Part shown: one piece after another, positions 37,532 to 56,497 of the stretch
How the letters are laid out: each line of letters starts with the position of its first letter
How positions within the stretch are numbered: the stretch's first letter is position 1
NCBI GenBank assembly: GCA_965215365.1
Contig: CBDCDS010000003.1
Span: 1,152,001-1,216,000 of the forward strand
DNA: 64,000 bases
From: Gammaproteobacteria bacterium
GTDB taxonomy: Bacteria; Pseudomonadota; Gammaproteobacteria; Eutrophobiales; Eutrophobiaceae
Reading direction: 5' to 3'
Translations under genes and position numbers: made by a program
The notes under the pieces: generated by a model
Databases searched by the model: none
What the model saw: the letters and a program-made list of their open reading frames with translations, nothing else
What the model was told of the DNA's origin: nothing

Positions 37532-37534
37532 TTC

Positions 37535-38794
37535 ATGCCCGACTACCTCCACGCCCTGCCTGCCGGCTACCGCCTTGACGAATACGAACTGGTGCGGGTG
37601 CTGGGCAGTGGCGGGTTTGGCATTACCTACCTGGGCTATGACCACCACCTAGACAAAGCCGTCGCCATCAAGGAGTACCTGCCCAATGATCTGGCGGTGC
37701 GCGCTGACAATCACTCGGTGCTGCCCAAGTCCAGTCAGGACAAGGCCGATTACGAATGGGGCTTGGCACGCTTTCTCAATGAAGCGCAGACCTTAGCCCG
37801 CTTTGACCACCGGCACATTATCAAAGTCTATCGGTTCTTCCGCGCCCATGGCACCGGGTATATCGTCATGGAGTATGCCGAGGGCGAAACGCTATCGGAG
37901 GTGTTACAGCGTAAGGGGACTCTGACAGAGACCGAGTTACAAGCCCTGCTGTTTCCCATTCTGGACGGGTTGGCCGTGGTGCATGAGGCCGATGTGCTGC
38001 ACCGGGACATCAAGCCGGGGAATATTGTGATACGGGACGATGGCAGCCCGGTATTGATTGACTTCGGCTCGGCGCGTCAAGCGGTGGCGGGGAAGAGTCG
38101 CAGTGTGACGGCAATTGTGACGCCGGGGTATGCACCGATAGAGCAGTATTCAGCCAAGGGGCATCAGGGGGCCTGGACGGATATTTATGCCTTAGGGGCG
38201 GTGTGTTACCGGTGTCTGACCGGAGAGCCACCTGATGATGCAACCGAGCGCTTGCGCGATGACCCGTTAGTGCCTGCTGCTCAACGATGTAACGGCAAGG
38301 TCAGTACAGAACTACTGGAGGCCATTGACCGGGCGTTACGGGTGGAGGAGGGGGAGCGGCCGCAAAGCGTGGCGGCATGGCGGACTATGTTGGTCGGAGA
38401 TAGTGACAGCGGCCAACATATTACCGGATCTGTGCACACCCAATACAACACGACTATCGGCCCGCCGTTGAATAACAACGGCGAACACACCACCGGGCCT
38501 GTGCAGAATGCAACCTGGCAGGAGTTGCTGGACAGCTACCTGAATAACAACGGCGAACACACCACCGGGCCTGTGCAGAAGCCGGAAACACGTTCTGTCG
38601 AAGGTTCAGAGTCGGCCCATGTCGGGATGGGCGAGTTTCTGTGGGGGCTGTTTCGACCAGGTGGTCTAGGTCTGGTGATAATACTACTGTCATTGGGAGT
38701 AAGTATCTGGCAGGATCTTGGCTGGTACTCTTTGCTTGTAATGGCAGGTGTTTTTCTTTTTCTTCTTTTTCTTCGTTTTCTTCTTTTTGTGTAA
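37535..38794 (+). CDS. Membrane Ser/Thr protein kinase copy 1 (C-terminus clipped by the IS)
   Basis: LGSGGFGITY, VAIKEY, HRDIKPGN, DFG, GYAPIEQ, DIYALG; C-terminal TM helices; stop lies in the IS left end, and the frame resumes at 41070-41144. Confidence 0.93.
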   Translation: MPDYLHALPAGYRLDEYELVRVLGSGGFGITYLGYDHHLDKAVAIKEYLPNDLAVRADNHSVLPKSSQDKADYEWGLARFLNEAQTLARFDHRHIIKVYRFFRAHGTGYIVMEYAEGETLSEVLQRKGTLTETELQALLFPILDGLAVVHEADVLHRDIKPGNIVIRDDGSPVLIDFGSARQAVAGKSRSVTAIVTPGYAPIEQYSAKGHQGAWTDIYALGAVCYRCLTGEPPDDATERLRDDPLVPAAQRCNGKVSTELLEAIDRALRVEEGERPQSVAAWRTMLVGDSDSGQHITGSVHTQYNTTIGPPLNNNGEHTTGPVQNATWQELLDSYLNNNGEHTTGPVQKPETRSVEGSESAHVGMGEFLWGLFRPGGLGLVIILLSLGVSIWQDLGWYSLLVMAGVFLFLLFLRFLLFV

Positions 38795-38879
38795 CTACTC
38801 GCCCCCTCCCTCTAATTCTACTGAATTTTTTGTCAAGGCGTCCTTGACAACATAGCGTCATGGCGTTATGTTGGTCGTC

Positions 38880-39560
38880 ATGGGGAATGCGTACCGAGGG
38901 TCGAAAGCCACGACGGGTCTGTGCCAGCCGCTCATTGCGATGATGCCGCCGCACAGTGTGTACATTGAGACACACTTAGGCGGCGGGGCGATTATGCAGC
39001 GCAAGCCGGCGGCGTTGCGCAACATTGGGATTGATCTTGATGTGCGGGCGTTGGCGGGGTTTACGTGTGGGTATCCGGTGGAGTTGGTGCAGGGGTGTTG
39101 TCACCGCTGGTTGGCGACTTTTCCGTTTGACGGCACGGAGTTGGTGTACAGCGACCCGCCCTACCTGCACAGCACGCGCAAGTCACGGCACCGTTACCGG
39201 TATGACTACGAGGACTCAGACCATGAGGCGCTGCTGGCGTTACTGCAGGGGCTGCCCTGTGCGGTGATGGTGTCGGGGTATCCTTCGGCCTTGTATGATG
39301 AGGTGCTGGCGGGCTGGCGCAGTGTGTCCTTGCAGGTGATGAATCAGGGCGGGGTGGTGACCGAGCGGGTCTGGTTCAATTTTGTGCCGGACCGGGTGCA
39401 CTGGGTGCGCTATGCGGGGCGCAACTTCACGCACCGCCAGCAGGTCAAGCGCAAGGCTGAGAACTGGGGGCGGCGTTATCGTGACTTGCCCCCGGCCGAG
39501 CGGCTGGCGGTGCTGGCGGCGATGATGGCGGTGGAGGCACAGTGCACATGGCCACGGTGA
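38880..39560 (+). CDS. DNA adenine methyltransferase (Dam/D12-like), IS passenger gene
   Basis: YRGSK, YIETHLGGGAI (motif I), VYSDPPY (motif IV), VMVSGY. Confidence 0.85.
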   Translation: MGNAYRGSKATTGLCQPLIAMMPPHSVYIETHLGGGAIMQRKPAALRNIGIDLDVRALAGFTCGYPVELVQGCCHRWLATFPFDGTELVYSDPPYLHSTRKSRHRYRYDYEDSDHEALLALLQGLPCAVMVSGYPSALYDEVLAGWRSVSLQVMNQGGVVTERVWFNFVPDRVHWVRYAGRNFTHRQQVKRKAENWGRRYRDLPPAERLAVLAAMMAVEAQCTWPR

Positions 39561-41065
39561 ACAAGGCCTCATTGCGTGCGGAGTTCGAGGCCATCCGAAT
39601 GCGTTTTAAGGCGTTGTGCGCCGACGGCGCGCTGAGTCCCGAAGGGCGTGCGCTGTTCGAGTCGATGTTGCTGCTATTCGAGTTGCTGCTGGCGGTGTTC
39701 TTAGAGAAGACCACACCGAAGGGGGCGCACAACTCCAGCCTGCCCAGTTCCCGCACCGACCCCGATGACAGTGCGCGCACACGGCCCGGCAAGCAGGGCA
39801 AGGGGCCGCAGACCGGGACGGTGCCCAGCGCGTCCCGGCGCGTGGTGGCTCAGACCCGCACGGTGCCCGTGACCGGCTGCCGGGCCTGCGGGCATGATCT
39901 CAAAGGCACCGCCCCCACCGGCCATGTGCGACGAGTCAAGGTCGATATAGTCTTCGAGACGACCGAGTTGACCATTGACGCCGAGATAAAAACCTGTCCG
40001 CGCTGTGGCACTGAGACCCACGGGGCGTTTCCCGATGACATGCCGGGGCCTTTACAATACGGCCCTGGCATCGTGGCTTTCGCCACGCACCTGTTAACGG
40101 CCCAAATGCTCTCGCTCAAACGTACGGCGCAGACACTTCATGCACTGACCGGGCGCGCCGTCGCCGAGGCGACCTTACTGGCCTGGCTCACGCGGGTGCA
40201 TGAGGCCCTGGCCGGGTGGGAGCGGGCGGCTATCGCCCGCCTGCTCACAGAGCCCGTGCTGCACGCCGATGAGACCTCCTTGCGCATCGACCGCACACAA
40301 CACTGGCTGCACAGCACCAGTGCCGGGAACCTGGTACTGAAACACTGCCACCGCAAGCGGGGCGGGGACGCCCTCAAGGACATCGGCATCGTCCCCCGCT
40401 ACGGCGGTGTTCTCGTGCACGACCGCTGGGCCAGCTACTTCGCCTATGACAACTGCGAGCATGCCCTGTGCGGCAGTCACCTGTTGCGTAACTTGGCCTT
40501 TATCGAGGACGCCCACGGCCATGCCTGGGCCCAACGTATGAGCCGCCTCCTGCTCAAGACCTGCCGACAGGTGCGCACACATAAAAACAAGGCACTCAGC
40601 GAGACCGACTACCAGTCCCTGCGCACCCGCTACCGGACTATCCTGACACAAGCCAAACGGGAACTCCCCACACCCCCGAAACGGCTCACCGGCCAACGCG
40701 GACGGATTGCCCAATGTGAGGCACAAAACCTCCATGATGCCCTCGTCAAGTACGAAACCGAAGTCCTCCGCTTCGCCCGCGACCCCAACGTGCCGTTCAC
40801 CAACAACCGCGCCGAACGCGATATCCGTATGGCTAAAGTCAAACAAAAAGTCTCCGGCTGCTTCCGAACCACCGCCTACGCCGACACCTACTGCCGCATC
40901 TCCAGCTACTTGCAGTCTATGACCCTGAAGGGCTACAATCCCCTCGCCGCCATCGAGATAGCACTCAAGGGAGACGCCGCCACCATGGTGGAAAAACCGC
41001 TCAAAAATAAAACGGTTAAGAAAAACCAGATCAGAACAAGAGATCAGGGTAAGGGGGGCGAGTAG
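39548..41065 (+). CDS. IS66 family transposase
   Basis: NSSLPSS, CRACG/CPRCG Zn motif, LHADET, LVHD, LCGSHLLR, FTNNRAERDIR, KQKVSGCFR. Confidence 0.95.
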   Translation: MATVNKASLRAEFEAIRMRFKALCADGALSPEGRALFESMLLLFELLLAVFLEKTTPKGAHNSSLPSSRTDPDDSARTRPGKQGKGPQTGTVPSASRRVVAQTRTVPVTGCRACGHDLKGTAPTGHVRRVKVDIVFETTELTIDAEIKTCPRCGTETHGAFPDDMPGPLQYGPGIVAFATHLLTAQMLSLKRTAQTLHALTGRAVAEATLLAWLTRVHEALAGWERAAIARLLTEPVLHADETSLRIDRTQHWLHSTSAGNLVLKHCHRKRGGDALKDIGIVPRYGGVLVHDRWASYFAYDNCEHALCGSHLLRNLAFIEDAHGHAWAQRMSRLLLKTCRQVRTHKNKALSETDYQSLRTRYRTILTQAKRELPTPPKRLTGQRGRIAQCEAQNLHDALVKYETEVLRFARDPNVPFTNNRAERDIRMAKVKQKVSGCFRTTAYADTYCRISSYLQSMTLKGYNPLAAIEIALKGDAATMVEKPLKNKTVKKNQIRTRDQGKGGE

Positions 41066-41233
41066 TTACCTTTTTGTTTTTATAACAGTCTTAATGGTAA
41101 TTTTTAAGTTGATCTTTAGGTTAATCTTATTCCTTATAGAGTAAGAGATGCGTTGATACTAAATGAGAGTAGTGAGGTGTCATAATCGCGGTTGTATTTC
41201 TGTATTTTTGAAAACTCCCAGTATTCGGAATAC

Positions 41234-41603
41234 GGTCACCTCTATTAATTAGAGGTGACCGTGCAGCACAAGGATGTGCTGCCAGTAACAGCAAGCACGT
41301 AAGTGCTTGAAAATGACAAATCGTCAGGATAGACGAATTGCAAACTACCTCCCTGTAGTTTGCCCCTTCGGGGCCAGCTACGCTGTCCAAATTCGTTCCG
41401 GACGAATTTGTGCACAGCCATAGCTGCCCGTAGGGTTGCGTCCACGGATGGACGCAATGAGGGAAATGAAAAATCATACTTTTTCATTTCCGTCTCACAA
41501 ATCCGCCCGGAGCGGATTTGGACGTCCGCAGGACGCCCGCAGGGGGCGTCCCAAGGATGGGACGCATCACAAAATACCACGGAGGGTATTTTTAGAGGTT
41601 ACC
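41234..41603. mobile_element. Hairpin-rich MITE-like element (family B, long form)
   Basis: Ends GGTCACCTCTA...TAGAGGTTACC; about a dozen short palindromes; blocks shared with 60069-60219. Confidence 0.8.
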
Positions 41604-41683
41604 ATATATCGGCCTGATGCAGATGCAACTGGTGCCTGCCGTCCTCCATCTGCTTATAGAATGTGTTATAAAGCGAAATCAAG

Positions 41684-42493
41684 ATGACAAATCCGCATAA
41701 ACCCCGCATGAACAACAACCCAACCATAGAAATCAACCAACGCCTGCTCGTAGTCAGCATCAGCCTGACTCTGGGCGTGATTTTTATTGCGGTGATGAGC
41801 AGTTTGTTGGAACATCCCGGTTCACCGGTGGGGGCTTTTCTGCTGGATCGCCATACGGAGAATTTTCCTTATCCTTTTACCGTACAAAACGTGATGTGGC
41901 TGATGTTCAGTGTCGGTTGCGGTGAGTTGTGGGTGCGTTTTAAGCAATCCAACCTTGAATTGGCGCAGGCCTCGAGAAAATATCTTCCCGAAGATGATGA
42001 AACCGTGTTGCGGGTGCAGGACCTTGGCCCCTTATACAAGAAGGTATTGCCTGGCGAAGGCGAGTCGGTGTTCTTTTTACAGCGCCTCATCAAGCGCGGT
42101 ATTTTGCAGTTTCAGGCAAGCCGGTCGGTGGACCAGACCAACTCGTTGTTGAATTCATCCCTGGAACTTTTTCAGCATGAACTGGAGCTTAAATACAATA
42201 TGCTGCGCTATCTGGTGTGGTTGATTCCCACTCTGGGGTTCATCGGCACAGTTGTGGGCATTGTGTTTGCTTTGGATTATGCTGCAAGTGTTAATAACCC
42301 GCAGGACCCGGCGTTACTGGCCGGCGTCATCGGGCGCCTGGGGGTGGCGTTCTACACGACCTTGCTGGCTTTGATTCAGTCGGCATTGCTGGTGTTTGGA
42401 TTGCATATTGCACAGGGGCGCGAGGAGCTGGCCCTGAACCGGTCGGGGCAATATTGCCTTGATAATCTGGTCAATCGACTTTATGAAAAGTAG
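41684..42493 (+). CDS. MotA/TolQ/ExbB proton channel family protein
   Basis: IPTLGFIGTVVGI and LGVAFYTTLLAL TM motifs, plus two N-terminal TM helices. Confidence 0.9.
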   Translation: MTNPHKPRMNNNPTIEINQRLLVVSISLTLGVIFIAVMSSLLEHPGSPVGAFLLDRHTENFPYPFTVQNVMWLMFSVGCGELWVRFKQSNLELAQASRKYLPEDDETVLRVQDLGPLYKKVLPGEGESVFFLQRLIKRGILQFQASRSVDQTNSLLNSSLELFQHELELKYNMLRYLVWLIPTLGFIGTVVGIVFALDYAASVNNPQDPALLAGVIGRLGVAFYTTLLALIQSALLVFGLHIAQGREELALNRSGQYCLDNLVNRLYEK

Positions 42494-42505
42494 GGGGTAA
42501 CCGTC

Positions 42506-43153
42506 ATGCCTGTTTATCGCGATGCAGACGGCAACATCATTGAAGAAAAAACTGAAAAGTCCGGCATGAAGACCGTACCAACCGGCGAGGAGGGTGAGCG
42601 GCCGGCGGCGCCAACCTCCGACAGCGCGTCGGTCATCGGCCAAGGGCGCCTAGATGCGCCCACCAGGAAAATGCAGGCAAGCCGTCCGGTGGTGGCTGCC
42701 GCTGATGCAAAAACCCGGTTGGTGGGCAGCCGCCGCAGACAGGCAGAGCGGGAGCGGTTGCAGGAACAGGCGGATAAAACCGACGCCATGGAGGATCCGG
42801 TTGTGGGTTGGCTGGTGATTGTGCAAGGGCCGGGTAAAGGCCGCGCGTTGAAACTGGGCTATGGCACAAACTCCATGGGTCGGGGCGAGACCAATCGGGT
42901 CAGCCTCAATTTTGGTGATGACCAAATATCGCGTGATCAACACGCGACGGTGACTTATGATCCGCGCGGCAAGAAGTTTTACGTCCAGCAGGGCAGCGGT
43001 ACGAACCTGACCTACCTTAATGATGAACCGGTGCTGACGCCCACTGAACTGGTGGCGGGGAATGACCTCACCCTGGGCAACACGATGGTGCGGTTTGTCC
43101 CCTTCTGCGGCGCTGGTTTTGACTGGCAAAGCACCGAACATGACGAAGCCTGA
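42506..43153 (+). CDS. FHA domain protein
   Basis: PVVGWLVIVQGPGKG, MGR, ISRDQHA, GTNLTYLN; disordered Thr-containing N-terminus. Confidence 0.92.
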   Translation: MPVYRDADGNIIEEKTEKSGMKTVPTGEEGERPAAPTSDSASVIGQGRLDAPTRKMQASRPVVAAADAKTRLVGSRRRQAERERLQEQADKTDAMEDPVVGWLVIVQGPGKGRALKLGYGTNSMGRGETNRVSLNFGDDQISRDQHATVTYDPRGKKFYVQQGSGTNLTYLNDEPVLTPTELVAGNDLTLGNTMVRFVPFCGAGFDWQSTEHDEA

Positions 43154-44094
43154 TGGATGATTTTGGCGGACGTTTCGCGGCCGGGCAGATTCCCGGCGCG
43201 CGCCAGTATCAGGAGGATGACTACGGCGTGCTGGACGGGCGCGCCGACCTCGGCACGGACGGTGGTGAACATACCTTGCTGCTGGTGGCGGACGGTATGG
43301 GTGGTCATGTCGGTGGCGGTGTAGCAAGCCGACTTATCAACAAGACCTTCATCGAAACCTACCCGCGCGTATCAGGGCCTGTCACAGACCGGCTCCGGGA
43401 GTGCCTTGACGCGGCCAATCAGGCCGTTGCCGCAGCGGTTGCAGAACAACCGGAACTCGATGGCATGGGCTCCACCCTGGTGGCTGTTGTGGTGTCAGCG
43501 CGCGGCCTGGAATGGCTCAGCATTGGCGATTCCCCCCTGTGGTTATACCGGGATGGTCATCTGGTGCGTATCAACTCCGACCATTCCATGGCGCCGGCAC
43601 TGGCGGAGCTGGTCGCCAGCGGCCGCATGACTGAAGCTGAAGCCGCGCAAGACCCCAATCGGCACATGCTGCGCTCGGCGGTGATGGGCGATGAAATCTC
43701 TTTAGTTGATGTCTCCTCCCAGCCACGCGACCTGAAAAAGGATGATCTGTTATTACTGGCAAGCGATGGGATGATGACGCTGGGTGAGCAGCAGATAGTG
43801 AATATCCTGCAAGACCGGCACGGCGCGGCTTTGGCAGACACAGCCGGCGCGTTGCTCAAGGCCGTTGAGGATGTGGCCCTGCCGAACCAGGATAATGCCA
43901 CGCTGTTACTTTATACGCCTGAGGCCGATTACGGGATGGAACCGGTGGTTGCCGCTGAGCACAAAACACCATCCGCGCGCGTCGAGGACGTGAGACAAGA
44001 GGCAAAATATCCAATTAAAATGTGGGCGGCAATCATCGTTGGCGCGCTGGTGTTGGGCCTGCTTGTTTATTTTCTACTCGCCCCCAACGGGTAA
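43153..44094 (+). CDS. PP2C/Stp1 Ser/Thr phosphatase with C-terminal TM
   Basis: RQYQED, VADGMGGH, MGSTL, IGDS, LASDG, DNAT; C-terminal hydrophobic helix. Confidence 0.94.
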   Translation: MDDFGGRFAAGQIPGARQYQEDDYGVLDGRADLGTDGGEHTLLLVADGMGGHVGGGVASRLINKTFIETYPRVSGPVTDRLRECLDAANQAVAAAVAEQPELDGMGSTLVAVVVSARGLEWLSIGDSPLWLYRDGHLVRINSDHSMAPALAELVASGRMTEAEAAQDPNRHMLRSAVMGDEISLVDVSSQPRDLKKDDLLLLASDGMMTLGEQQIVNILQDRHGAALADTAGALLKAVEDVALPNQDNATLLLYTPEADYGMEPVVAAEHKTPSARVEDVRQEAKYPIKMWAAIIVGALVLGLLVYFLLAPNG

Positions 44095-44137
44095 TCACTA
44101 CTGTTGACACCGGCTTGATAGGGTCAGGATAGCAAAG

Positions 44138-45727
44138 ATGATACTGAAATATAGCTGTCGATACTGGTTATTGCCGTTATTTTTTGTTGGCGTGCCTGTT
44201 GCCGCTGACATTGACCCTGAACTGGTGCGTGAGAGTCTGGTGCAGGTGCGCGCCTATGATAATAACCGGGTCGTAGCTGAAGGGACAGGCTTTGTTATTA
44301 ACGATGAAGGTCATGTGCTCACCAATGCCCACCTTATAAAACAGTCAGCTCAGCTCACCGTTTTGTCCCTGACAACCGGCGCGGAAATCCTGGCACAACA
44401 AACCTTTGTCAATGAAGACCTGAATCTGGCGCTGTTGCAGGCCCGGGGTTTGGGTTTGCCGCCGTTGCCACTGTCCGAACAGGGAGCAGACATAGGCCGG
44501 ATCGTGCAAACACTCAAATATGCGGCGGCTGAGGCGGTACGGTTGTCGCAAGGCACCATTGGTGTCTATCAGGATATTCCGGGGCCGACAGCCGCTGCCC
44601 CAACGGTGCACCTGCTGGAGCATAATGCCATGATAAGCTCCAGGGAGTTTGGAATGCCGTTGTTTAATGAATGTGGTCAGGTTGTCGCCATGAATACGCC
44701 CGACCCGGAAGCGGCTCACTGGCTCACCGGGCGGCTTGCCGAACCGGAAGGAAAAGTGCTGGCTTTGCGCAGCAACGATATTATCACCGCATTACAGGAT
44801 AAAGGAATTACCCATACTGTCGTCACGGATGTTTGTCTGAGCGCCGTGGAACGCGCACAACGAACGGCTCTGCAACAACAACAGGCGGCTGCGGTCGCCA
44901 TGGCGGCACAACAGGCAGCCGAACAGGCCCGACAACAGGCAGAAGTCGCCCAAGCGCAGGCTGAAACTGCAAAGGCAGCCGCCGAGCAAGACGCAGCAGC
45001 CGCTACGGCGGCGAAACAGGTCGCCGAACAAGCCCGACAACAAGCAGATGCCGCCCAAGCGCGGGCTGAAACTGCACAAGCAGCCGCCGAAGAAGATGCC
45101 GCCCGGAAAAAACAGCAGGCCGAGGCCGCCGAGGCTGCCCGTCTGGCAGCCGAGGAAACCGCCGGACATAAACAGGAAGAAGCGGAGAGACTGCAACAAG
45201 AACAAGTAAAAAAAGAACAACAACTGCTGTGGGCCGTGGCAACAGGAACGGTGTTGATACTGTTGGCGTTGCTTGGCTGGTTCCTGTCGGCTCGTGCAAA
45301 AAGGAAAAAGTTACAGTCCGCTGCAGCCCAGGTGGGCGCCGCGCAACAGGACGCAGAACAAGCCCGGCAAGCCGCCGCCAAGGCGCCGCAACCCACGCCT
45401 TTCAAATGTGTATTGGAAGGCCATGACGACACCGGCAAACCGTTTACGTTAAGCATTCCGGCATTAGCGTTAGGTGACCCCGCAGGCGTGGTGCTTGGCA
45501 GAAGCCCCGCCGATGCGGAATTCATCATCGACTACGATGAAATATCTCGTGAACATATCCGCCTGACATATACCCATGACAGACTCTATGTGGAAGACCT
45601 CGACACCCTGAACGGCACAAGGGTGAATGGCGATACGCTGCAACCACAGGAAAAGGTACTGTTGCAGGATAAGGATCGATTGCAGCTGGGGCCGCTCAGT
45701 CTGACCGTGCGCCTGATACTCTTGTAA
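44138..45727 (+). CDS. Signal peptide - trypsin-like domain (degenerate) - Ala/Gln/Glu coiled coil - TM - FHA protein
   Basis: GTGFVI, LTNAH; TM LLWAVATGTVLILLALLGWFL; FHA motifs LGRSP, ISREH, DTLNGTRVNG. Confidence 0.88.
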   Translation: MILKYSCRYWLLPLFFVGVPVAADIDPELVRESLVQVRAYDNNRVVAEGTGFVINDEGHVLTNAHLIKQSAQLTVLSLTTGAEILAQQTFVNEDLNLALLQARGLGLPPLPLSEQGADIGRIVQTLKYAAAEAVRLSQGTIGVYQDIPGPTAAAPTVHLLEHNAMISSREFGMPLFNECGQVVAMNTPDPEAAHWLTGRLAEPEGKVLALRSNDIITALQDKGITHTVVTDVCLSAVERAQRTALQQQQAAAVAMAAQQAAEQARQQAEVAQAQAETAKAAAEQDAAAATAAKQVAEQARQQADAAQARAETAQAAAEEDAARKKQQAEAAEAARLAAEETAGHKQEEAERLQQEQVKKEQQLLWAVATGTVLILLALLGWFLSARAKRKKLQSAAAQVGAAQQDAEQARQAAAKAPQPTPFKCVLEGHDDTGKPFTLSIPALALGDPAGVVLGRSPADAEFIIDYDEISREHIRLTYTHDRLYVEDLDTLNGTRVNGDTLQPQEKVLLQDKDRLQLGPLSLTVRLILL

Positions 45728-45901
45728 TCTGATATCGCCAGGTGCGGCGGGACAGATAAGGGCACTGACAGGCGATTGCAAGCAAGGGCGCGCCGGTCAA
45801 TGGCTGTTTGCGGAGGCGACCATGGGGTTCTTTGTGTCCGTGGCGAGGTAGTCGGAGCGGGCATTGTGGCCCCGGGATTATTTGCAAATACCCCGAAGAC
45901 A

Positions 45902-45936
45902 GGTTATAAGCAGCTTTTATGAAACTGCTTATAACC
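45902..45936. promoter_or_regulatory. Perfect 12 bp inverted repeat, putative operator
   Basis: GGTTATAAGCAG-N11-CTGCTTATAACC, 14 bp upstream of the nucleotidyltransferase start. Confidence 0.6.
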
Positions 45937-45950
45937 ACTGGTAGCGGTCG

Positions 45951-46985
45951 ATGAGATACACGTCATTGGTGCCAAGCGCCCAGGTCGCCTATGCGGACCT
46001 GCTCACCAGCCTTTACAACTCAGCCATCCCGGGCCGCGGCATTTCCTGTTTCACCCGAAATGTGAAAGGGAAAAATTACTGGTATCTGCAATACACTATC
46101 GGACCCAGCAAGCGCTCCTGTTACCTTGGCCCTGATACCGACTCCATTCGCGAGCGGGTGGTAAAGTGCAGGCAAAAACAGGATGAGGACAAACAGCAAC
46201 ACAGTGGGAGAAAACGCATGGTAGCCACCTGTATCGCAACGGGCCTGCAGGCTTTGTCGCCTGCCGAAGCCCGGGTCTATGAGGTGTTGGCGCAAGCGGG
46301 CCTGTTTGAGGCGGGCGCGGTGATTGCAGGGACACACGCTTTTCTCCATATCGGCAATATGCTGTGTGTTCAGTGGGCGCATTTTGCCACGCGCACCAAG
46401 GATGTTGATATCGCTCAGAAGCAGACCATTGCCGTGGCGTCCCCGCCTGTGAATATGGATTTCGGGGAAACGCTGGCGCGGGCGGATAAGGGTGTTTTTC
46501 CGGTCCCGGCACTGGACTCCAGGCAACCGTCAACCCGGTTCGCCCTGCGCAACCAGGACTTGACCGTCTCCCTGCTTACCCCGTTGCGCGGCAGGCCGTC
46601 GGGCAAACCGGTGCTGCTGAAAGGCTTGAATGCGGCAGCTGAGCCGGTGCGCTACCTGGATTACCTGATTGAAGACAGCCAGCCTGCAGCCGTGCCTGCG
46701 GGAACAGGCCTGCTGATTCGCATCCCGTCCCCGTCCCGTTTTGCCTTGCACAAACTGGTGGTTTCACAACGGCGTCCTGTCGCGTTCGCAGCAAAGAGCC
46801 GCAAGGACCTGGCGCAGGCGGCAGCGGTGCTGGAGGTATTGAAAGATCTCAGGCCCGGAGATATTGAACTGGCCGGCGCTGCCGCCGTGCGTATGGGGAA
46901 CAAATTTGTCAAGCAGATGCTGGCCGCCGCCAATCTGATCGATGAGGAACTTGGCGCGCTGGTCAGAGCTGCCGTGGTCAGGTAG
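45951..46985 (+). CDS. GSU2403-like nucleotidyltransferase-fold protein
   Basis: [54 protein letters not shown]. Confidence 0.8.
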
Positions 46986-47019
46986 GGTAAAATCATACTT
47001 TTATTGTAACTACTCACCC

Positions 47020-47310
47020 ATGCCTGACTACCTCCACGATTACTGTGGCGACTCATATCACTACACCGCCCCGGCAGGCAGTTTCCCGGCCAACCCCTGG
47101 GGCTTACACGATATGCACGGCAATGTGTGGGAGTGGGTGCAAGATTGCTGGCATTACACTTATGAAGGCGCGCCGACGGATGGCAGTGTTTGGACGAGTG
47201 GTGATTGCAGCCGGCGCGTGTTTCGGGGTGGTTCCTGGCTCAACGATGCGTGGGGCTTGCGTTCCGCCTTCCGCCTCTCGGACGCCCGCACGAACCGCCT
47301 CAACATATTG
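47020..47310 (+). pseudogene. Internally deleted kinase-FGE remnant: the first 6 kinase codons fused to the C-terminal FGE/CLec segment
   Basis: ATGCCTGACTACCTCCAC (same as kinase copies 2 and 3), then [15 protein letters not shown]...RGGSW; terminal GFR missing. Confidence 0.85.
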
Positions 47311-47419
47311 AGCGGTTGCTCTTGTTTCTCGATAGTCGCTTTCCATCGTCGGGCGCTATCGGTGAACGCCTCGTTCAACAGACTGACTCATTTCAGTTCG
47401 GTAACGCAAGAGTTCTCGC

Positions 47420-47929
47420 GTGGGCGACGAAAGACAATTTGAGGGTCATATCGAGGGACTGTCGGTGGTGGTAATGCTTCAGGAGGTTTATGACAGGGCT
47501 GAGGATCGATGCGTCCATTTCAGCGGTCCAACAGAATCCACCGACAGCCGTTTGTTCTTTGAAACCGGCCAACCGGAAGATACCGCAGCAAGCCAGTGGG
47601 GACGAAAGCTACTGGACAAACTGAAAAAACGGCAGTGTGGCCAACCATCCTCGGATTATCTTCGTATGCTCGTAGTCGATTTCTCACGTGCCGACACCGG
47701 ATGGCCTGATTTTATTTGCTGGCCGGGCATTGCCCAGCGACTCTCGAAGACGGTGAAGTTGCTCGCAGAGAAAGCCGGGGAACCGCTCGCATATGACGCC
47801 GTGTTGCCTGTCCGACTGAGCGATGTGAGTGGAGAGCGTTACTTCGGAGAGGTCATTTTACTGGATCATAGATGTGCGGAGGATGTTGAACGTATTGTGC
47901 AGGCGGCCTCGCTTAATCGTTGCAGCTGA
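47420..47929 (+). CDS. Hypothetical protein (possibly a 5'-truncated fragment)
   Basis: Open frame with protein-like composition ending at the PIN gene start; no family recognised. Confidence 0.4.
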
Positions 47930-48420
47930 TGCAAAGCATATACATAGAAACCACGATACCAAGTTATTTAACAGCTCGGAATAATCCGGATTTAAGGGTG
48001 GCTGCGTGGCAGCAAATAACTTTGCAATGGTGGAACGAAGAGCGGGTAAAATATGATATATTCATTTCAGAGTTGGTCACTGCCGAGGCTTCCAAAGGAA
48101 ATTATCAGGCAGCACGACGACGGCTTAAATCACTGGAAAATATTGCCGAGTTGGCTATAGACGTTGACATGAGAGAGTTGGCAAATGCTCTTATGAGAGG
48201 TGGGGGAATACCTGAATCATCAGAAACCGATGCCCTGCACATCGCCATAGCAGCAGTGCATCAGGTTGATTATTTGCTGACTTGGAATTGTCGCCATATA
48301 AACAATGCGGTCACGAAACCCATGGTGCGCAGATTATGTCAGGAAGCAGGACATATTTGTCCGGAAATCTGCACACCTCTTGAACTGTTATCGGAGGTTC
48401 AATGGCATGTACCGAGATGA
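47929..48420 (+). CDS. PIN-domain toxin-like protein
   Basis: IYIETTIPSYL, DALHIAIA, YLLTWNCRHI, ICTPLEL. Confidence 0.88.
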   Translation: MQSIYIETTIPSYLTARNNPDLRVAAWQQITLQWWNEERVKYDIFISELVTAEASKGNYQAARRRLKSLENIAELAIDVDMRELANALMRGGGIPESSETDALHIAIAAVHQVDYLLTWNCRHINNAVTKPMVRRLCQEAGHICPEICTPLELLSEVQWHVPR

Positions 48421-48610
48421 AATTATTGAAGAAGTCTGGAAAAACAGGGAAACCTACGCCGCCAGCCATGATCATAATCTTGCAAAAATAGTCGATGATT
48501 TGATGGCCCGTCAAAAAAAATCCGGGAAAATCGTAGTGGACCGGCGCCCCATTCCTGATGACGATACCAATACGGATGAGGTTGCCACTCGGCTCCGGGC
48601 GGGTATGTAA
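48407..48610 (+). CDS. Small partner protein of the PIN gene (putative antitoxin)
   Basis: DEIIEEVWKNRETYAASHDHNLAKIVDDL; overlaps the PIN gene end. Confidence 0.75.
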   Translation: MYRDEIIEEVWKNRETYAASHDHNLAKIVDDLMARQKKSGKIVVDRRPIPDDDTNTDEVATRLRAGM

Positions 48611-48618
48611 TCCCACCC

Positions 48619-49899
48619 ATGCCTGACTACCTCCACGCCCTGCCTGCCGGCTACCGCCTTGACGAATACGAACTGGTGCGGGTGCTGGGCAGTGGCGGGT
48701 TTGGCATTACCTACCTGGGCTATGACCACCACCTAGACAAAGCCGTCGCCATCAAGGAGTACCTGCCCAATGATCTGGCGGTGCGCGCTGACAATCACTC
48801 GGTGCTGCCCAAGTCCAGTCAGGACAAGGCCGATTACGAATGGGGCTTGGCACGCTTTCTCAATGAAGCGCAGACCTTAGCCCGCTTTGACCACCGGCAC
48901 ATTATCAAAGTCTATCGGTTCTTCCGCGCCCATGGCACCGGGTATATCGTGATGGAGTATGCCGAGGGAGAAACGCTATCGGAGGTGTTACAGCGTAAGG
49001 GGACTCTGACAGAGACCGAGTTACAAGCCCTGCTGTTTCCCATTCTGGACGGGTTGGCCGTGGTGCATGAGGCCGATGTGCTGCACCGGGACATCAAGCC
49101 GGGGAATATTGTGATACGGGACGATGGCAGCCCGGTATTGATTGACTTCGGCTCGGCGCGTCAAGCGGTGGCGGGGAAGAGTCGCAGTGTGACGGCAATT
49201 GTGACGCCGGGGTATGCACCGATAGAGCAGTATTCAGCCAAGGGGCATCAGGGGGCCTGGACGGATATTTATGCCTTAGCCCGCATATCTCACCAAGTCG
49301 CTTGTCGTCTTGTGAAACATAATTGCTTTCAATAAGTTATGACAATACTGCTACTCTTCCCGCATAACAGACTGCGCTTGATGCGCCCTCGCTGGTCTTG
49401 GTTCTGCCTGCGGGCACGTGCTCCCTCAACCATAGCTACCGCTATGGTTTCGGTCGCAGGCACCCGCAGGCAGAACCAATCCGGCGCGATCTTCGCATCA
49501 CTTGGTGAGATATGCGGGCTAGGGGCGGTGTGTTACCGGTGTTTGACCGGAGAGCTACCTGATGATGCAACCGAGCGCTTGCGCGATGACCCGTTAGTCC
49601 CTGCTGTCCAGCACTGCAAGGGCAAGGCAAGCACCGCCTTGCTCAACGCCATAGACCGGTCTCTTAAGGTAGATGAGGGGGAACGGCCGCAAAGCGTGGC
49701 GGCATGGCGGGAGATGCTATTGAATAAGACGGTAGCTTCAGCCTATCACCAGATAGAGGAAACGGCGAAACCGGCCACCCGGCCTCCTTCAATAAGCTCT
49801 CCAGAGGCTAAAGTTGGTTGGTTAAAACTCCTTTGGCTGGTTGGGGTAGCAGTGTGGGTAATCTTGTTAGTCTTTTTAGTCTTTTACTTCACCATATAA
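48619..49899 (+). pseudogene. Ser/Thr kinase copy 2, interrupted by a MITE
   Basis: Near-identical to copies 1 and 3; 243 bp insertion within DIYAL/G carries TAA at 49333-49335; ends after one TM helix. Confidence 0.92.
49279..49519. mobile_element. 241 bp MITE (family C)
   Basis: 20 bp TIRs GCCCGCATATCTCACCAAGT / ACTTGGTGAGATATGCGGGC; TA duplicated at 49277-78 and 49520-21; empty site present in kinase copies 1 and 3. Confidence 0.95.
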
Positions 49900-50213
49900 G
49901 CGCGGTCGTGTGGTCCGACAGTCAAAAATACAACTGTTTCATCTGTTCGGTTTTCGCAGAAGCAATATCGGCATTCCTTGACGCTTCGACATTCTTCACA
50001 GATAACGAAAATCACCCGAAAGTTTCTGCCTGCCCGTGCACTGGGGCAACCTCGCAAGTCCAGCCCTCCGGCAACTTTTCCGAGGCGCTCTGTTCTATCA
50101 TAAGGGTCATCTAGGATTTGTCCGACTATTTTCCGGATGCGTTTGCGCAAACTCGAATAACGTGCAAGATTACGAACAAACCGGTCTTCATAAAACCCTT
50201 GATATTCATTCAC
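49884..50213 (-). CDS. RelE/YafQ-like toxin with Cys-rich insertion
   Basis: FYEDRFVRNL, ILDDPY, LRGCPSAR..NFRVIF, FLTVGPHDRAY; CEECRSVKECRYCFC. Confidence 0.7.
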   Translation of the reverse strand: MNEYQGFYEDRFVRNLARYSSLRKRIRKIVGQILDDPYDRTERLGKVAGGLDLRGCPSARAGRNFRVIFVICEECRSVKECRYCFCENRTDETVVFLTVGPHDRAYMVK

Positions 50214-50436
50214 TCCATACTTCCTCGTGAGTATGGAACTTCAGTTTTCCCGTTTTTCTCCGTTCAGAAATATTAACCATGTCTTCGCGCAGAGGGGATT
50301 CCTCGTGCCATTCCAATACCCCCCGCTGACGTGAAGCAAACTCCATGAGTTCTTCCTGTACCACTTTACGGATGAGTCTTTCTAATTCGCCCAAGGTAAC
50401 TTTGCTTTCTGGTGTTGTTGCCATCTGACCGCTCAT
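50206..50436 (-). CDS. Putative antitoxin
   Basis: ELERLIRKVVQEEL...FHTHEEVW; overlaps the toxin start. Confidence 0.65.
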   Translation of the reverse strand: MSGQMATTPESKVTLGELERLIRKVVQEELMEFASRQRGVLEWHEESPLREDMVNISERRKTGKLKFHTHEEVWSE

Positions 50437-50705
50437 TTTCAAACCCTCGTCTCTCGATTTCTCCCTGATTTCAATGACAGTTTACTAAATTCCTGCTTTT
50501 CACTCTACCCTCTCTCAAGGAGTCCAAGTATTAGTTGTTTCGTGATAATTTGAATATGATGATGAGAGACGAACCTGATCCTTGGAGGGCGATACCAGCC
50601 TCGCTCTTCGAATCAGACAGCTATCATATACCAACGGTTTATCTTGAGGATGTAGCTCATTTGGGCTACACTGTCATAGTCAAGTCACAAACAGGAGAAT
50701 GATCC

Positions 50706-50966
50706 ATGGCAGTAACTGAGGTTGTACGCGCTCGAGTTGATGGGCGCTTGAAAGAAGAGGCCACCGCGATATTGGCGACCATGGGGCTTACCGTGTCCGA
50801 TTTCGTGCGTATTGGTCTCACCAAGGTAGTAAGCGAGCAGGGGTTGCCGTTTGCAATGCGAGCGCCCAACCGGCTGACAGCTGAAACCCTTGCCAGAAGC
50901 GAGCGCGGCGAGGACCTGCACCGTGCCGAAGACGCTGAAGCCCTGTTCAAAGACCTAGGTATTTGA
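50706..50966 (+). CDS. dinJ: RelB/DinJ antitoxin
   Basis: VRARVDGRLKEEATAILATMGLTVSD, GLPF, PNRLT, LFKDLGI. Confidence 0.92.
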   Translation: MAVTEVVRARVDGRLKEEATAILATMGLTVSDFVRIGLTKVVSEQGLPFAMRAPNRLTAETLARSERGEDLHRAEDAEALFKDLGI

Positions 50967-51238
50967 TGCGTATCCCGGTCTATTCCGGCCAGTTCAAACG
51001 CGACCTGAAAACAGCACGGAAACGCGGCAAGGACATGGAGAAGATCAAGGCGCTGATGCGCTTGTTGATAGATGAAAAGCCCTTGTCCCCGCACTGCAAA
51101 GACCATCCGCTTAAGGGCCAGTGGCGCGGCTTCCGGGATGCTCACATCGAATCGGATTGGTTGCTGATTTACAAGATCGACGGCGACGAAGTGCGTTTTG
51201 AACGGACGGGCAGACACACCGACCTGTTTGAAGAGTAA
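50966..51238 (+). CDS. yafQ: YafQ family toxin
   Basis: QFKRDLK, DHPLKGQW, RDAHIESDWLLIY, RTGRHTDLF. Confidence 0.93.
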   Translation: MRIPVYSGQFKRDLKTARKRGKDMEKIKALMRLLIDEKPLSPHCKDHPLKGQWRGFRDAHIESDWLLIYKIDGDEVRFERTGRHTDLFEE

Positions 51239-51446
51239 GTAGTGGTCCCATGCTTGTCGAGAAAAAGTTAGAAGTTTATCAGCAGCAAGGGGCCAACCAT
51301 GGATATAAAGGCAATAGTTGGGAGAAACAATACTACACCCGGCCGCACATAAAGATCTCAGCATTCGGAATATATCGGCCCATCAGAATACGCAAGGCAG
51401 CTCATGCTATTATGTGCATTACGCGTAGCAATGAAAGAGATCAAAA

Positions 51447-51535
51447 ATGTACAAAAAAATGACGCTCACGCTCGATGAAGCGGTTTACGAAGCACTGTAC
51501 CGGACGGTTGGCAAGCGTCGGATAAGCAAGTTAAT
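51447..51535 (+). pseudogene. Truncated antitoxin-like fragment
   Basis: MYKKMTLTLDEAVYEALYRTVGKRRISK resembles N-termini of RHH addiction-module antitoxins. Confidence 0.5.
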
Positions 51536-51809
51536 TCTGACGGGCGCGCAGGTGGGGAATCTGAACAAATGAGAAGCTTAATATTGATAGGTGTGTGGGG
51601 CTTAGTATTCTCATAAGGTGGTGCGATTTAGTTTATTAGGTTCTACGCACGCAATAAAAATGATGCGGTTGGGAGCAGAGATGATAACAGATGAAGAATC
51701 AAAAAATCAGCAAGGTGTGAGCTCTGAAGAATTTTTGTAGCCATCACGAAACTCTAATGCTACAAGCTACCTTTAATCACATCAGGAAGTTCAGCCACCG
51801 GAGATAAAG

Positions 51810-52034
51810 ATGAACTTAAAGCAAATAAAAGACGAGGTGCTCCACTTACCTGCAGGGGACAGAGCGGAGTTAGCCCAAAAACTTCTGCTAAGCCTTGATA
51901 CTCCGTCACAAGATGAAGTCGATGCCGGCTGGCTGACCGAATCACACAGGCGGGCACGTGAACTTGATGAAGGTATTGTTCAACCCATTCCGGCAGAAGA
52001 GGTGAGAAGAAAAGTACAAGCCTTGTTCAGATGA
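51810..52034 (+). CDS. Putative addiction module component (TIGR02574-like)
   Basis: LHLPAGDRAELAQKLLLSL, W..E..RR, IPAEEV; followed by an ATGA-overlapping stub MTYFL. Confidence 0.85.
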   Translation: MNLKQIKDEVLHLPAGDRAELAQKLLLSLDTPSQDEVDAGWLTESHRRARELDEGIVQPIPAEEVRRKVQALFR

Positions 52035-52052
52035 CCTATTTCTTGGTTACCC

Positions 52053-54173
52053 ATGCCTGACTACCTCCACGCCCTGCCTGCCGGCTACCGCCTTGACGAA
52101 TACGAACTGGTGCGGGTGCTGGGCAGTGGCGGGTTTGGCATTACCTACCTGGGCTACGACCATCACCTAGACAAAGCCGTCGCCATCAAGGAGTACCTGC
52201 CCAATGATCTGGCGGTGCGCGCTGACAATCACTCGGTGCTGCCCAAGTCCAGTCAGGACAAGGCCGATTACGAATGGGGCTTGGCGCGCTTTCTCAATGA
52301 AGCGCAGACCTTAGCCCGCTTTGACCACCGGCATATTATCAAAGTCTATCGGTTCTTCCGCGCCCATGGCACCGGGTATATCGTGATGGAGTATGCCGAG
52401 GGAGACACCTTATCAAAAGTGTTACAGCGTAAGGGGACTCTGACAGAGACCGAGTTACAAGCCCTGCTGTTTCCCATTCTGGACGGGTTGGCCGTGGTGC
52501 ATGAGGCCGATGTGCTGCACCGGGACATCAAGCCGGGGAATATTGTGATACGGGACGATGGCAGCCCGGTATTGATTGACTTCGGCTCGGCGCGTCAAGC
52601 GGTGGCGGGGAAGAGTCGCAGTGTGACGGCAATTGTGACGCCGGGGTATGCACCGATAGAGCAGTATTCAGCCAAGGGGCATCAGGGGGCCTGGACGGAT
52701 ATCTACGCCTTAGGGGCGGTGTGTTACCGGTGTTTGACCGGAGAGCTACCTGATGATGCAACCGAGCGCTTGCGCGATGACCCGTTAGTCCCTGCTGTCC
52801 AGCACTGCAAGGGCAAGGCAAGCACCGCCTTGCTCAACGCCATAGACCGGTCTCTTAAGGTAGATGAGGGGGAACGGCCGCAAAGCGTGGCGGCATGGCG
52901 GGAGATGCTATTGAATAAGACGGTAGCTTCAGCCTATCACCAGATAGAGGAAACGGCGAAACCGGCCACCCGGCCTCCTTCAATAAGCTCTCCAGAGGCT
53001 AAAGTTGGTTGGTTAAAACCCCTGCTGGTTGGGGTAGCAGTGTGGGTAATCTGTTTACTGTTAGTCTTTCTCGCGCAGGAGCAAGCTGCCATACAGCAGC
53101 AGGCTGTCAAACGAGAACGGATACGGCAGGAGCAGGCTGCCATACAGCAGGAGCAGGCTGTCAAACGAGAACAACGGATACGGCAGGAAAAATTATCTAA
53201 CGTTGAAATGTTCGAACAATATATCGTGGAGCAGGCTGTCAAACGAAAACAACGGATACTGCAGGAAAAATTATCTAACGTTGAAATGTTCGATCAATAT
53301 ATCGTGGAGCAGGCTGTCAATGAGCATTGGAACGCGTTTACGGCAGAGCTGAGGACTGGAGATCTGGTCGGAGCGGCTGCTTCCTTGTTTCAAATACGCC
53401 AGTTAAGCCCGAATGCGCCCGGTTTGTCCGACGGGGAGCGACTTTTAGCTGAGGCTCAGGTAGCTGCTCTGGCGAAGGCAATAGAGATGGTCTCCATCCC
53501 CGGCGGCACGTTCCGCATGGGGGATTTGAGTGGGGAGGGTTATAGCAACGAGCAACCCGTTCGCCGCGTCACGGTACCGGCCTTCAGGCTGGGAAAATAC
53601 GAAGTCACGTTTGCCCAATGGGACGCCTGTGTGGCGGATGGAGGCTGTAACGGTTACACCCCGCTTGTAGGCTGGGGCCGCGGCAACCGCCCGGTCGGCA
53701 ATGTCTCTTGGAACGACGCCCAATCCTTCATTGATTGGCTGAACGGCAAGACCGGCGGTAACTACCGCTTACCCACAGAGGCAGAGTGGGAGTATGCGGC
53801 CCGGGCCGGCACGACCACGAAGTACAGTTGGGGCGATGACATCGGCAGCAACCGGGCGAACTGTGATGATGATGTTTGCGGCGACTCCTATGAATACTCC
53901 GCCCCGGTAGGCAGTTTCCCGGCCAATCCTTGGGGCTTGCATGATATGCACGGTAATGTGTGGGAGTGGGTGCAAGATTGTTACAACGATAGTTACAAAG
54001 GTGCCCCGACAGACGGCAGCGCTTGGATGAGTGGTAATTGCGGCGAGCGCGTGCTTCGGGGTAGTTCCTGGTTCGGCGATGCGAGGTTCCTGCATTCCGC
54101 TTTCCGCTTCAAGGGTGCCGCCGCGAGCCAGTTCCACTTCGACATCGGCTTTCGTCTGGCCCAGGACAAGTAA
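52053..54173 (+). CDS. Ser/Thr kinase copy 3 - TM - coiled-coil repeats - FGE-sulfatase (CLec-fold) domain
   Basis: Kinase motifs; FRMG, YEVTFAQW, PVGNVSWND, YRLPTEAEWEYAARAG, GNVWEW, IGFRLAQD. Confidence 0.95.
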   Translation: MPDYLHALPAGYRLDEYELVRVLGSGGFGITYLGYDHHLDKAVAIKEYLPNDLAVRADNHSVLPKSSQDKADYEWGLARFLNEAQTLARFDHRHIIKVYRFFRAHGTGYIVMEYAEGDTLSKVLQRKGTLTETELQALLFPILDGLAVVHEADVLHRDIKPGNIVIRDDGSPVLIDFGSARQAVAGKSRSVTAIVTPGYAPIEQYSAKGHQGAWTDIYALGAVCYRCLTGELPDDATERLRDDPLVPAVQHCKGKASTALLNAIDRSLKVDEGERPQSVAAWREMLLNKTVASAYHQIEETAKPATRPPSISSPEAKVGWLKPLLVGVAVWVICLLLVFLAQEQAAIQQQAVKRERIRQEQAAIQQEQAVKREQRIRQEKLSNVEMFEQYIVEQAVKRKQRILQEKLSNVEMFDQYIVEQAVNEHWNAFTAELRTGDLVGAAASLFQIRQLSPNAPGLSDGERLLAEAQVAALAKAIEMVSIPGGTFRMGDLSGEGYSNEQPVRRVTVPAFRLGKYEVTFAQWDACVADGGCNGYTPLVGWGRGNRPVGNVSWNDAQSFIDWLNGKTGGNYRLPTEAEWEYAARAGTTTKYSWGDDIGSNRANCDDDVCGDSYEYSAPVGSFPANPWGLHDMHGNVWEWVQDCYNDSYKGAPTDGSAWMSGNCGERVLRGSSWFGDARFLHSAFRFKGAAASQFHFDIGFRLAQDK

Positions 54174-56317: not shown

Positions 56318-56497
56318 GATTCATCCGCAGCTGACGCAGATTAACGCAGATATTTTTTTGTCACTCAGGACGCACGGTTCACGGAACCATTGAGTTGCGA
56401 CAACCGCCGATTAAGTTAGAGGTGGCCTTAAAATAATCTGCGTCAGCTGCGGATGAATCAAACTGCCCCAGTCAAGTGTCGCGTCAGCTGCGGATGA
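56318..56497. repeat. Family-A element with perfect 26 bp IRs (56318-56343 / 56434-56459) and an extra arm
   Basis: GATTCATCCGCAGCTGACGCAGATTA / TAATCTGCGTCAGCTGCGGATGAATC. Confidence 0.9.

Follow-up and report, generated by a model that had tools for sequence, protein, structure and literature searches.

We analyzed a 64,000-nt stretch of contig CBDCDS010000003.1 from a gammaproteobacterial genome (the whole stretch is referred to below as the window; the genome, G000, comprises 2.73 Mb in three contigs and is 97.6% complete). The window contains an array of serine/threonine kinase genes, whose kinase domain we call the head and whose differing 3′ part, with its transmembrane (TM) helix and any sensor domain, we call the tail. 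A repeat search of the window revealed that the 5′ region of the kinase gene is present three times in direct orientation, at 37535 (copy 1), 48619 (copy 2), and 52053 (copy 3); 300-nt repeat units located at 37534, 48618, and 52052 are 98 to 100% identical. The kinase genes and the mobile DNA that interrupts them are as follows.

37535–38794, plus strand: kinase copy 1 (419 aa), whose kinase domain is whole and is followed by a juxtamembrane part of type A (holding a 2 × 24-aa repeat) and a single TM helix; there is no ectodomain
38791–41069, plus strand: IS66-family insertion sequence (IS), 2279 bp (Pfam DDE_Tnp_IS66, NCBIfam transpos_IS66), which gives copy 1 its stop codon
47020–47442, plus strand: what is left of a fourth kinase-FGE gene, namely, 18 nt of head, an in-frame FGE end, and then unrelated sequence
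48619–49274, plus strand: 5′ part of kinase copy 2, which the variable-site table shows to be a mosaic of copies 1 and 3
49275–49517, no strand assigned: miniature inverted-repeat transposable element (MITE), 243 nt with the target duplication counted, bounded by inverted ends of ~22 nt; it appears as an alignment gap and splits copy 2
49518–49899, plus strand: kinase copy 2, 3′ part, with a type-B juxtamembrane part and a TM helix, then cut off
52053–54173, plus strand: kinase copy 3 (706 aa), with the kinase domain, a type-B juxtamembrane part, a TM helix, a coiled coil with a 78-nt tandem duplication, and a PvdO-like FGE domain

Three near-identical kinase heads

In a three-way alignment, the identity shared by the copies begins ~4 nt upstream of each ATG, the DNA further upstream being unrelated, and the near-identical stretch covers the first ~700 nt of each gene. 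Over nt 1 to 657, which align without gaps, copies 1 and 2 differ at 3 positions, copies 2 and 3 at 12, and copies 1 and 3 at 15. An earlier note on this DNA, made from the sequence and its open reading frames (ORFs), had claimed that three genes share an almost base-identical kinase domain, and these counts bear it out. Since the near-identity includes synonymous sites, purifying selection alone is ruled out as its cause.

Hanks-type kinases are recognized by a glycine loop, the VAIK lysine, the HRD catalytic loop, and the DFG and APE motifs. The translations of copies 1 and 3 contain GSGGFG, VAIK, HRDIKPGN, DFG, and APIE, and the kinase domain of copy 2 is broken by the MITE 3′ of APIE. Scores with the Pkinase profile (PF00069) are 144 bits for copy 1 (E = 7e-42), 131 bits for the 5′ part of copy 2, and 143 bits for copy 3, compared to a curated cut-off of 31.7 bits, which places all three in the Hanks-type family. 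A search of the whole genome, which had been proposed as a check, was run both at the DNA level and with the Pkinase profile and returned only these three copies. A genome-wide kinase repertoire was rejected on the same grounds: there are only three heads, and all of them lie inside the window.

Heads and tails of array members have different histories

The heads were compared with those of related genomes from the same genus. Over the first 660 nt, heads are 98 to 100% identical to each other within G000, 93 to 96% within G003, 92 to 94% within G018, and 92 to 97% within G010; between genomes, identity is at most 92%. Orthologous flanks of G000 and G006 are only 84 to 91% identical. Copy 1 shares its flanking blocks X and M (see below) with kinase c of G006 (G006_c), yet its head is 98% identical to that of copy 3 and 92% identical to that of G006_c. 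Sliding identity profiles are box-shaped in four genomes, with about 90 to 100% identity from the ATG to about nt 780 and a return to background soon past the end of the kinase domain.

In a head tree of 26 rows, the heads of G000, G003, G018, and G010 each form one clade, with 99 to 100% support. Juxtamembrane/TM regions can be sorted into types that recur across genomes: type A in copy 1, G006_c, G003_d, G018_a, and the kinases of G001, G004, and G009; and type B in copies 2 and 3, G006_a, G003_b, and the kinases of G008, G016, and G010. Approximately unbiased (AU) tests on the heads reject a type-A clade (P = 6e-13) and a type-B clade (P = 4e-5). They also reject the grouping of positional orthologues, i.e., copy 1 with G006_c (P = 0.009) and copy 3 with G006_a (P = 4e-4). 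When tail-type labels were mapped onto 14-row trees, the tree of nt 1 to 690 required 8 changes, which equals the shuffled mean, and the tree of nt 735 to 960 required 5, with a minimum of 4 and a value as low as this in 1 of 200 shuffles. The latter tree pairs copy 1 with G006_c (support, 93/98) and G003_d with G018_a (92/94) and brings the DUF4328 kinases together (97/97); genome clades were recovered for this region in 0 of 200 bootstrap trees.

Copy 2 combines sequence from copies 1 and 3 as a mosaic. At variable sites it agrees with copy 1 at 12 positions and with copy 3 at nt 6, 333, and 351; from nt 682 onward, all 59 variable sites match copy 3. The kinase genes thus display the hallmarks of concerted evolution: within-genome paralogues are nearer to each other than to between-genome orthologues (synonymous sites included), trees conflict along the gene, and there are mosaic tracts. 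Recombination through the shared head, as had been proposed, is borne out by the copy 2 mosaic and by the tree conflict. Overall, these results suggest that the heads of array paralogues are homogenized by repeated interlocus gene conversion, or by unequal crossing-over, and that this is confined to the kinase domain; we put the probability of this explanation at roughly 80%.

Several points weigh against it. The heads of G001, G006, and G008 do not form single clades, so that homogenization would be uneven. Tail types were assigned by eye after the first identity matrix, and the AU P values are post hoc. The 3′ tree (nt 735 to 960) is built on 236 columns and has only one starred branch, and the genomes compared, being related, are not independent of each other. 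Finally, the evidence comes from sequence.

A different explanation is that the array members are young whole-gene duplicates that arose in each species, had their tails replaced later, and carry heads that undergo no ongoing conversion. Tandem duplication is common; all six copies in G010 have one architecture; and in some pairs (G018 a/c and G010 e/b), high identity reaches upstream of the ATG. However, kinases with the same tail type cluster together across species when the last part of the kinase domain and the juxtamembrane part are compared. Copy 1, for all its X and M flanks in common with G006_c, has a head nearer to copy 3 (98%) than to G006_c (92%). Moreover, repeated replacement of tails exactly at the domain border would itself be recombination at one junction. 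We therefore consider young duplication an improbable source of the pattern.

Mobile DNA and truncation in the kinase genes of the window

Copy 1 had been described as carrying a repeat linker and a multi-TM tail. The juxtamembrane part holds the 2 × 24-aa repeat, and what had been called multi-TM consists of one type-A TM helix followed by T-rich read-through. Its alignment with G006_c and other kinases ends after GVSIWQ, straight past the helix, and the stop codon (38792–38794) sits within the IS66-family element. When the IS is removed and the empty site is read through, the ORF gains only 21 codons; the ectodomain had thus been lost by the time the IS arrived.

The assignment of this element to the IS66 family is based on a transpos_IS66 score of 249 bits (cut-off, 180), inverted ends (GTAACTACTCGCCCCC), and an 8-bp target duplication (CTTTTTGT, at 38783–38790 and 41070–41077). 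Target duplications of 8 bp are typical for the family. The element encodes a Dam-like protein (38868–39560) and the transposase (39542–41065); the 230-aa product of the former contains a DPPY motif and has a weak match to Dam methyltransferases. There are 13 further full-length copies elsewhere in the 2.7-Mb genome, all at ~100% identity (query positions from about 89–92 to 2370–2384), which points to very recent transposition bursts.

Copy 2 had been taken for an intact gene with a single TM helix. In fact, the 243-nt MITE splits its kinase domain, leaving ORFs at 48619–49335 and 49339–49899, and its tail is a copy 3 tail truncated after the TM helix: 3′ of the MITE, ~310 nt are identical to copy 3, small indels occur in the helix, and similarity is gone near 49875. 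About 50 near-full-length members of the MITE family, at 85 to 96% identity, are present in G000. Public sequencing runs were available as Logan contigs (X1 and X4 from one study, X5 from a second, and X6 from a third, with a more distant strain). One X5 contig connects 49276 with 49520, plus two other letters, and thus represents copy 2 without the MITE. Copies 1 and 3 have no common 30-nt stretch across the insertion point, which makes a chimeric contig path unlikely. The MITE insertion in copy 2 therefore seems to be recent and polymorphic between populations.

Copy 3 is the sole complete receptor in the window. Its tail of TM helix, coiled coil, and FGE domain is as described earlier, with Pfam matches to Pkinase at residues 17 to 235 and to FGE-sulfatase at residues 478 to 703 (E = 3e-60); PvdO (PDB 5hha) is the nearest solved chain for the FGE domain (E = 2e-39).

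A fourth kinase start had been noted at 47020, fused to a different FGE tail. The fusion is indeed in frame, but only a remnant is left: 18 exact nucleotides of the head are joined to the last third of an FGE domain (profile positions 155 to 241 of 255). The FGE part is 79% identical to the copy 3 tail, with 52 mismatches in 253 nt. We interpret the fragment as the remnant of an internal deletion. Within 46995–47019, the 15 nt directly 5′ of its ATG (TGTAACTACTCACCC) are those of the left end of the IS66-family element apart from a single mismatch, which hints that an IS copy may have been involved in its formation. The possibility that the fragment is the lost ectodomain of copy 1 was considered and not upheld, as its FGE piece is equally near to both G006 kinases (83.5 and 83.9%). 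Altogether, the differing tails in this window are mostly products of decay through the IS, the MITE, truncations, and an internal deletion.

The earlier note had also likened the array to polymorphic cassette systems. Such a programmed system, in which frequent recombination in a cell population connects one expressed head with alternative tails (as in pilE/pilS, Rhs or CdiA orphan modules, or shufflons), would fit the direct orientation of all heads, the head-1/tail-3 hybrid in copy 2, the tail fragment with 18 nt of head at 47020, and the variation of copy number between species. However, none of the copies is a promoterless cassette, each having a start codon of its own and a full head; the 47020 fragment, with so little of the head and FGE profile positions 155 to 241, is too small for a swap cassette; and mobile DNA has inactivated two of the three copies. 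No site-specific recombinase or invertase was found in Pfam scans of the window, and there are no silent cassettes. Flank-to-head joints agree among the four runs from three studies, and the sole joint internal to a head is that of the MITE-free form of copy 2 in X5 (many contig joints that link MITE copies to each other were disregarded as repeat artifacts). Apart from that form, no alternative head-tail joints are present in the public contigs, which cannot show rare forms. The comparison with cassette systems is thus not sustained, and we regard programmed switching as very unlikely.

A diversity-generating retroelement (DGR), with the two FGE tails as a template/variable pair, was rejected: there are 0 matches to RVT_1, the reverse transcriptase profile, in the 97.6% complete genome, and the mismatches between the tails lack an adenine bias (adenines occur at 9 of them in the fragment and at 12 in copy 3, and most mismatches are transitions).

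That a single kinase gene was placed three times by the assembly is scarcely credible: repeats of ~700 nt at 98 to 100% identity do break short-read contigs, and Logan contigs end at head edges, but three distinct upstream flanks run 26 to 36 nt into the head (contig spans 36500–37570, 41577–48644, and 49799–52078 in X1, X4, and X5, and the first and third of these in X6), the copies differ at 3 to 15 fixed sites and in their 3′ parts, and the 14 full-length, ~100% identical IS copies, including that of the window, were each placed separately in a genome of three contigs. The three flank-to-head spans and the fixed differences between copies thus argue against collapsed or misassembled repeats, a concern raised in the earlier note.

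Kinase arrays and tail types in related genomes

A protein search covering 40 related genomes showed that other members of the genus carry this kinase in tandem arrays. We then counted matches to a head-only query in the 23 genomes of the genus, G000 included. Heads were found in 13 of them, at 1 to 9 per genome, and the remaining ten had none. The counts given below include fragments and pseudogenes (the G014 gene is interrupted by two TAG stops, and one of the G018 matches covers 128 aa).

9 head matches: G017
6 head matches: G010
4 head matches: G001, G003, G018
3 head matches: G000, G006
2 head matches: G008
1 head match: G004, G009, G011, G014, G016

A PP2C query gave one match per genome in 14 of the 23 genomes. 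Kinase and PP2C occur together in 12, the kinase only in G011, PP2C only in G007 and G012, and neither in eight. In 10 of the 12 genomes with both, the two are on the same contig, and PP2C is at most about 10 kb from the array or, in G001, inside it; in G017, PP2C adjoins a kinase fragment on a small contig. The proposal that the kinases feed one FHA/PP2C circuit is supported to the extent that each array detected has one PP2C next to it; the circuit itself is putative.

Tails of 32 kinases from relatives were catalogued with Pfam, another check that had been suggested. Seven recognized tail types were found.

FGE-sulfatase: 15 kinases, 5 of them also with PG_binding_1
Ankyrin repeats: 6 kinases
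DUF4328: 3 kinases
Sel1 repeats: 2 kinases
PG_binding_1 without FGE: 1 kinase
RDD: 1 kinase
TerB and DnaJ: 1 kinase
No recognized tail family: 3 kinases

Related species thus have the array with many different tails. The proposed repertoire of a constant head with variable sensors holds at the level of the genus, where seven tail types are seen in 32 kinases, but not in the window, where there are only three heads and the tails differ by decay.

Ankyrin tails with up to 20 repeats are attached to the same head in two relatives (L116 to L119 in G017 and L123 in G036). Ankyrin repeats are frequently remarked on in sponge symbionts. A further record, L034 (OY282352.1, 275480–288328), is labelled as an uncultured Latescibacteria metagenome-assembled genome; its head is 74% identical, far nearer than those of the other named records scanned, and the label or the origin of the gene merits scrutiny.

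Gene order around the array

The genes and blocks that surround the kinases are listed below.

33802–33890, plus strand: leftover 3′ end of a trypsin-FHA gene, 81% identical to 45610–45698 (the end of the intact gene) and directly 5′ of the VWA gene
33916–34821, plus strand: VWA-domain protein (V; Pfam VWA_2/VWA), 78 to 86% identical at the nucleotide level to the gene preceding the arrays of G003, G006, and G018
36136–37219, no strand assigned: block X, with a PIN-domain toxin gene (36219–36644, minus strand; Pfam PIN); 90.9% identical by blastn to L026, 12382–11301
41684–44094, plus strand: M block, with a MotA/ExbB-like protein, an FHA protein, and a PP2C phosphatase (Pfam MotA_ExbB, FHA, PP2C_2; NCBIfam Stp1_PP2C)
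44138–45727, plus strand: membrane trypsin-like peptidase with a C-terminal FHA domain (T; Pfam Trypsin_2, FHA), here moved behind the M block
50706–51238, plus strand: RelB/YafQ toxin-antitoxin pair (Pfam RelB, YafQ_toxin); 91.8% identical by blastn to L026, 14694–13797

According to blastn, the cluster order common to G003 and G006 is trypsin-FHA (T), VWA (V), kinase array, and M block. In both genomes T comes before V, and in G006 the intact trypsin-FHA gene precedes the VWA gene. V, array, and M follow the same order in G018, where T has no match in the fetched stretch. The M block is 82 to 86% identical at the nucleotide level to the block 3′ of the arrays in G003, G006, and G018. In the window the order is the 3′ remnant of T, V, an inserted ATPase gene, block X, copy 1 with the IS, M, and T, and then an NTP_transf_8 gene, the 47020 fragment, a PIN pair, copy 2, the RelB/YafQ pair, and copy 3. 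The DNA between the kinase copies includes the IS66-family element, MITE-like repeats, the PIN and RelB/YafQ pairs, a lone antitoxin, and the NTP_transf_8 gene.

Copy 1 here and kinase c in G006 both sit between blocks X and M and are positional orthologues. Likewise, the RelB/YafQ pair sits between two type-B kinases in both genomes (copies 2 and 3 here, kinases a and b in G006). The locus is thus apparently a rearranged, partly decayed version of a cluster present in about half of the genus genomes. Both the junction of PP2C with trypsin-FHA (M/T) and the orphan trypsin-FHA 3′ end at 33802 would be accounted for if the whole locus had been duplicated in tandem and complementary parts had then been lost. 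By Pfam and blastn, vWA, kinase, FHA, and PP2C domains are encoded together, which is the composition of a vWA-kinase-FHA-PP2C operon.

Further repeats are present in the window. Positions 41230 to 41610, between the IS and the MotA-like gene, consist of short repeated elements, parts of which recur widely in the genome; a ~72-nt unit forms long tandem arrays elsewhere, at C3:2120478–2120780 and 2323480–2324142. A 51-nt hairpin-bearing repeat occurs at 41234–41284 and 60069–60119 (88% alike). An exact 49-nt tandem duplication with the motif CAGATGACGCAGAT is located at 31162–31259, with related copies in both orientations at intergenic positions 27306–27510 and 56318–56366. At 11744–15049, a 1102-aa protein with 29 RTX calcium-binding repeat stretches is encoded by DNA with internal 300-nt repeats; the GC skew of this region is strong (0.37).

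Discussion

Concerted evolution of the kinase heads probably proceeds as follows. The array members are old paralogues that differ in their juxtamembrane and sensor parts, and the first ~700 to 780 nt of their kinase domains are overwritten again and again among them, either by RecA-type interlocus gene conversion or by unequal crossing-over between direct repeats. Such overwriting renders heads alike within a genome and different between genomes. By analogy with vWA-kinase-FHA-PP2C operons, the tails would let the kinases detect periplasmic ligands, the phosphothreonines made by the kinases would be read by the FHA proteins (the FHA-tagged membrane peptidase among them), and the single PP2C would reset the signal. 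A shared head may be favored because a single set of partners has to serve all sensors. A KPATRP-like, semi-conserved stretch occurs 5′ of the TM helix in both juxtamembrane types and across genomes (38400–38580 in the window); it could be a candidate phosphothreonine docking site for FHA proteins.

Silent cassettes and orphan modules are known from Neisseria pilE/pilS and from the orphan toxin tips of Rhs and CdiA. The kinase array resembles these systems in that a constant part is common to the copies, the ends vary, and recombination passes through the constant part. It differs from them in that the copies have their own starts and are not silent, and in that population-level switching is not seen in the contigs.

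Parallels are also offered by concerted evolution. Mammalian TLR1 and TLR6, a tandem pair of receptor paralogues, undergo interlocus gene conversion and partial concerted evolution (PMC2077338), and concerted evolution in prokaryotes has been surveyed (PMC6053082) in a paper whose main text contains the word “kinase” 0 times. As in these cases, within-genome paralogues are nearer than orthologues, only part of the gene is homogenized, and tracts are mosaic. Unlike there, the genes considered here encode bacterial Hanks-type kinases, the whole catalytic head is homogenized, the arrays contain up to six genes, and the sensor domains are unrelated to each other.

The cluster itself has a counterpart in Deinococcus radiodurans, where DRA0331 to DRA0334 form a vWA–Ser/Thr kinase–FHA–PP2C operon and the FHA and PP2C proteins are proposed to act on the kinase (bioRxiv 10.64898/2026.01.23.701218). 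Kaur et al. 2020 (PMC7159879) also note kinase-PP2C-vWA neighborhoods. The likeness is by domain family: the same four families are encoded side by side. The cluster described here differs from the Deinococcus operon in adding the trypsin-FHA membrane peptidase and the MotA/ExbB-like protein and in having 0 to 9 kinase matches per genome for one PP2C.

With regard to the sensor part, kinases with a C-terminal FGE/NirV (DUF323) domain were described by Krupa and Srinivasan in 2005 (PMC1262709); copy 3 resembles them in its succession of kinase, TM helix, and FGE-fold domain, and the FGE part of copy 3 matches the FGE-fold protein PvdO (PDB 5hha; E = 2e-39). DGR-diversified CLec/FGE sensor proteins are treated by Dore et al. 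2024 (PMC10907252) and Kaur et al. 2020 (PMC7159879). The array has in common with them an FGE-fold at the C terminus of signaling proteins and paralogues shaped by duplication, recombination, transposons, and MITEs. It differs in that the G000 genome has no reverse transcriptase and in that the two FGE copies diverge without adenine bias.

Partial concerted evolution is already well known as a process; the array presented here is a clean and recurrent example of it that is largely decayed in G000. In the main texts of the literature searched, we found no account of head-limited concerted evolution in bacterial serine/threonine kinase arrays, nor of this cluster in sponge symbionts. The trypsin-FHA/VWA/kinase array/MotA-like/FHA/PP2C cluster is unstudied, and many sensors appear to feed one phosphatase-reader set in it. 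For annotation, the G000 locus carries a warning, as only one of its four kinase-like ORFs is a complete receptor.

The array provides a case of one gene with two histories, in which the signaling half is kept uniform by recombination and the sensing half diverges or is exchanged, and at least four species within a single genus show this pattern. Tentatively, one may go further and view the array as a bacterial counterpart of receptor-like kinase repertoires. Conversion would then be selected to match every head to one set of outputs, i.e., the FHA readers, the FHA-tagged membrane peptidase, and the single PP2C, and unequal crossing-over within the head would make and remove head-tail combinations. 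We regard this view as doubtful. If it is true, these sponge-associated bacteria could quickly turn over their set of sensors, including FGE, Sel1, ankyrin, PG-binding, and other tails.

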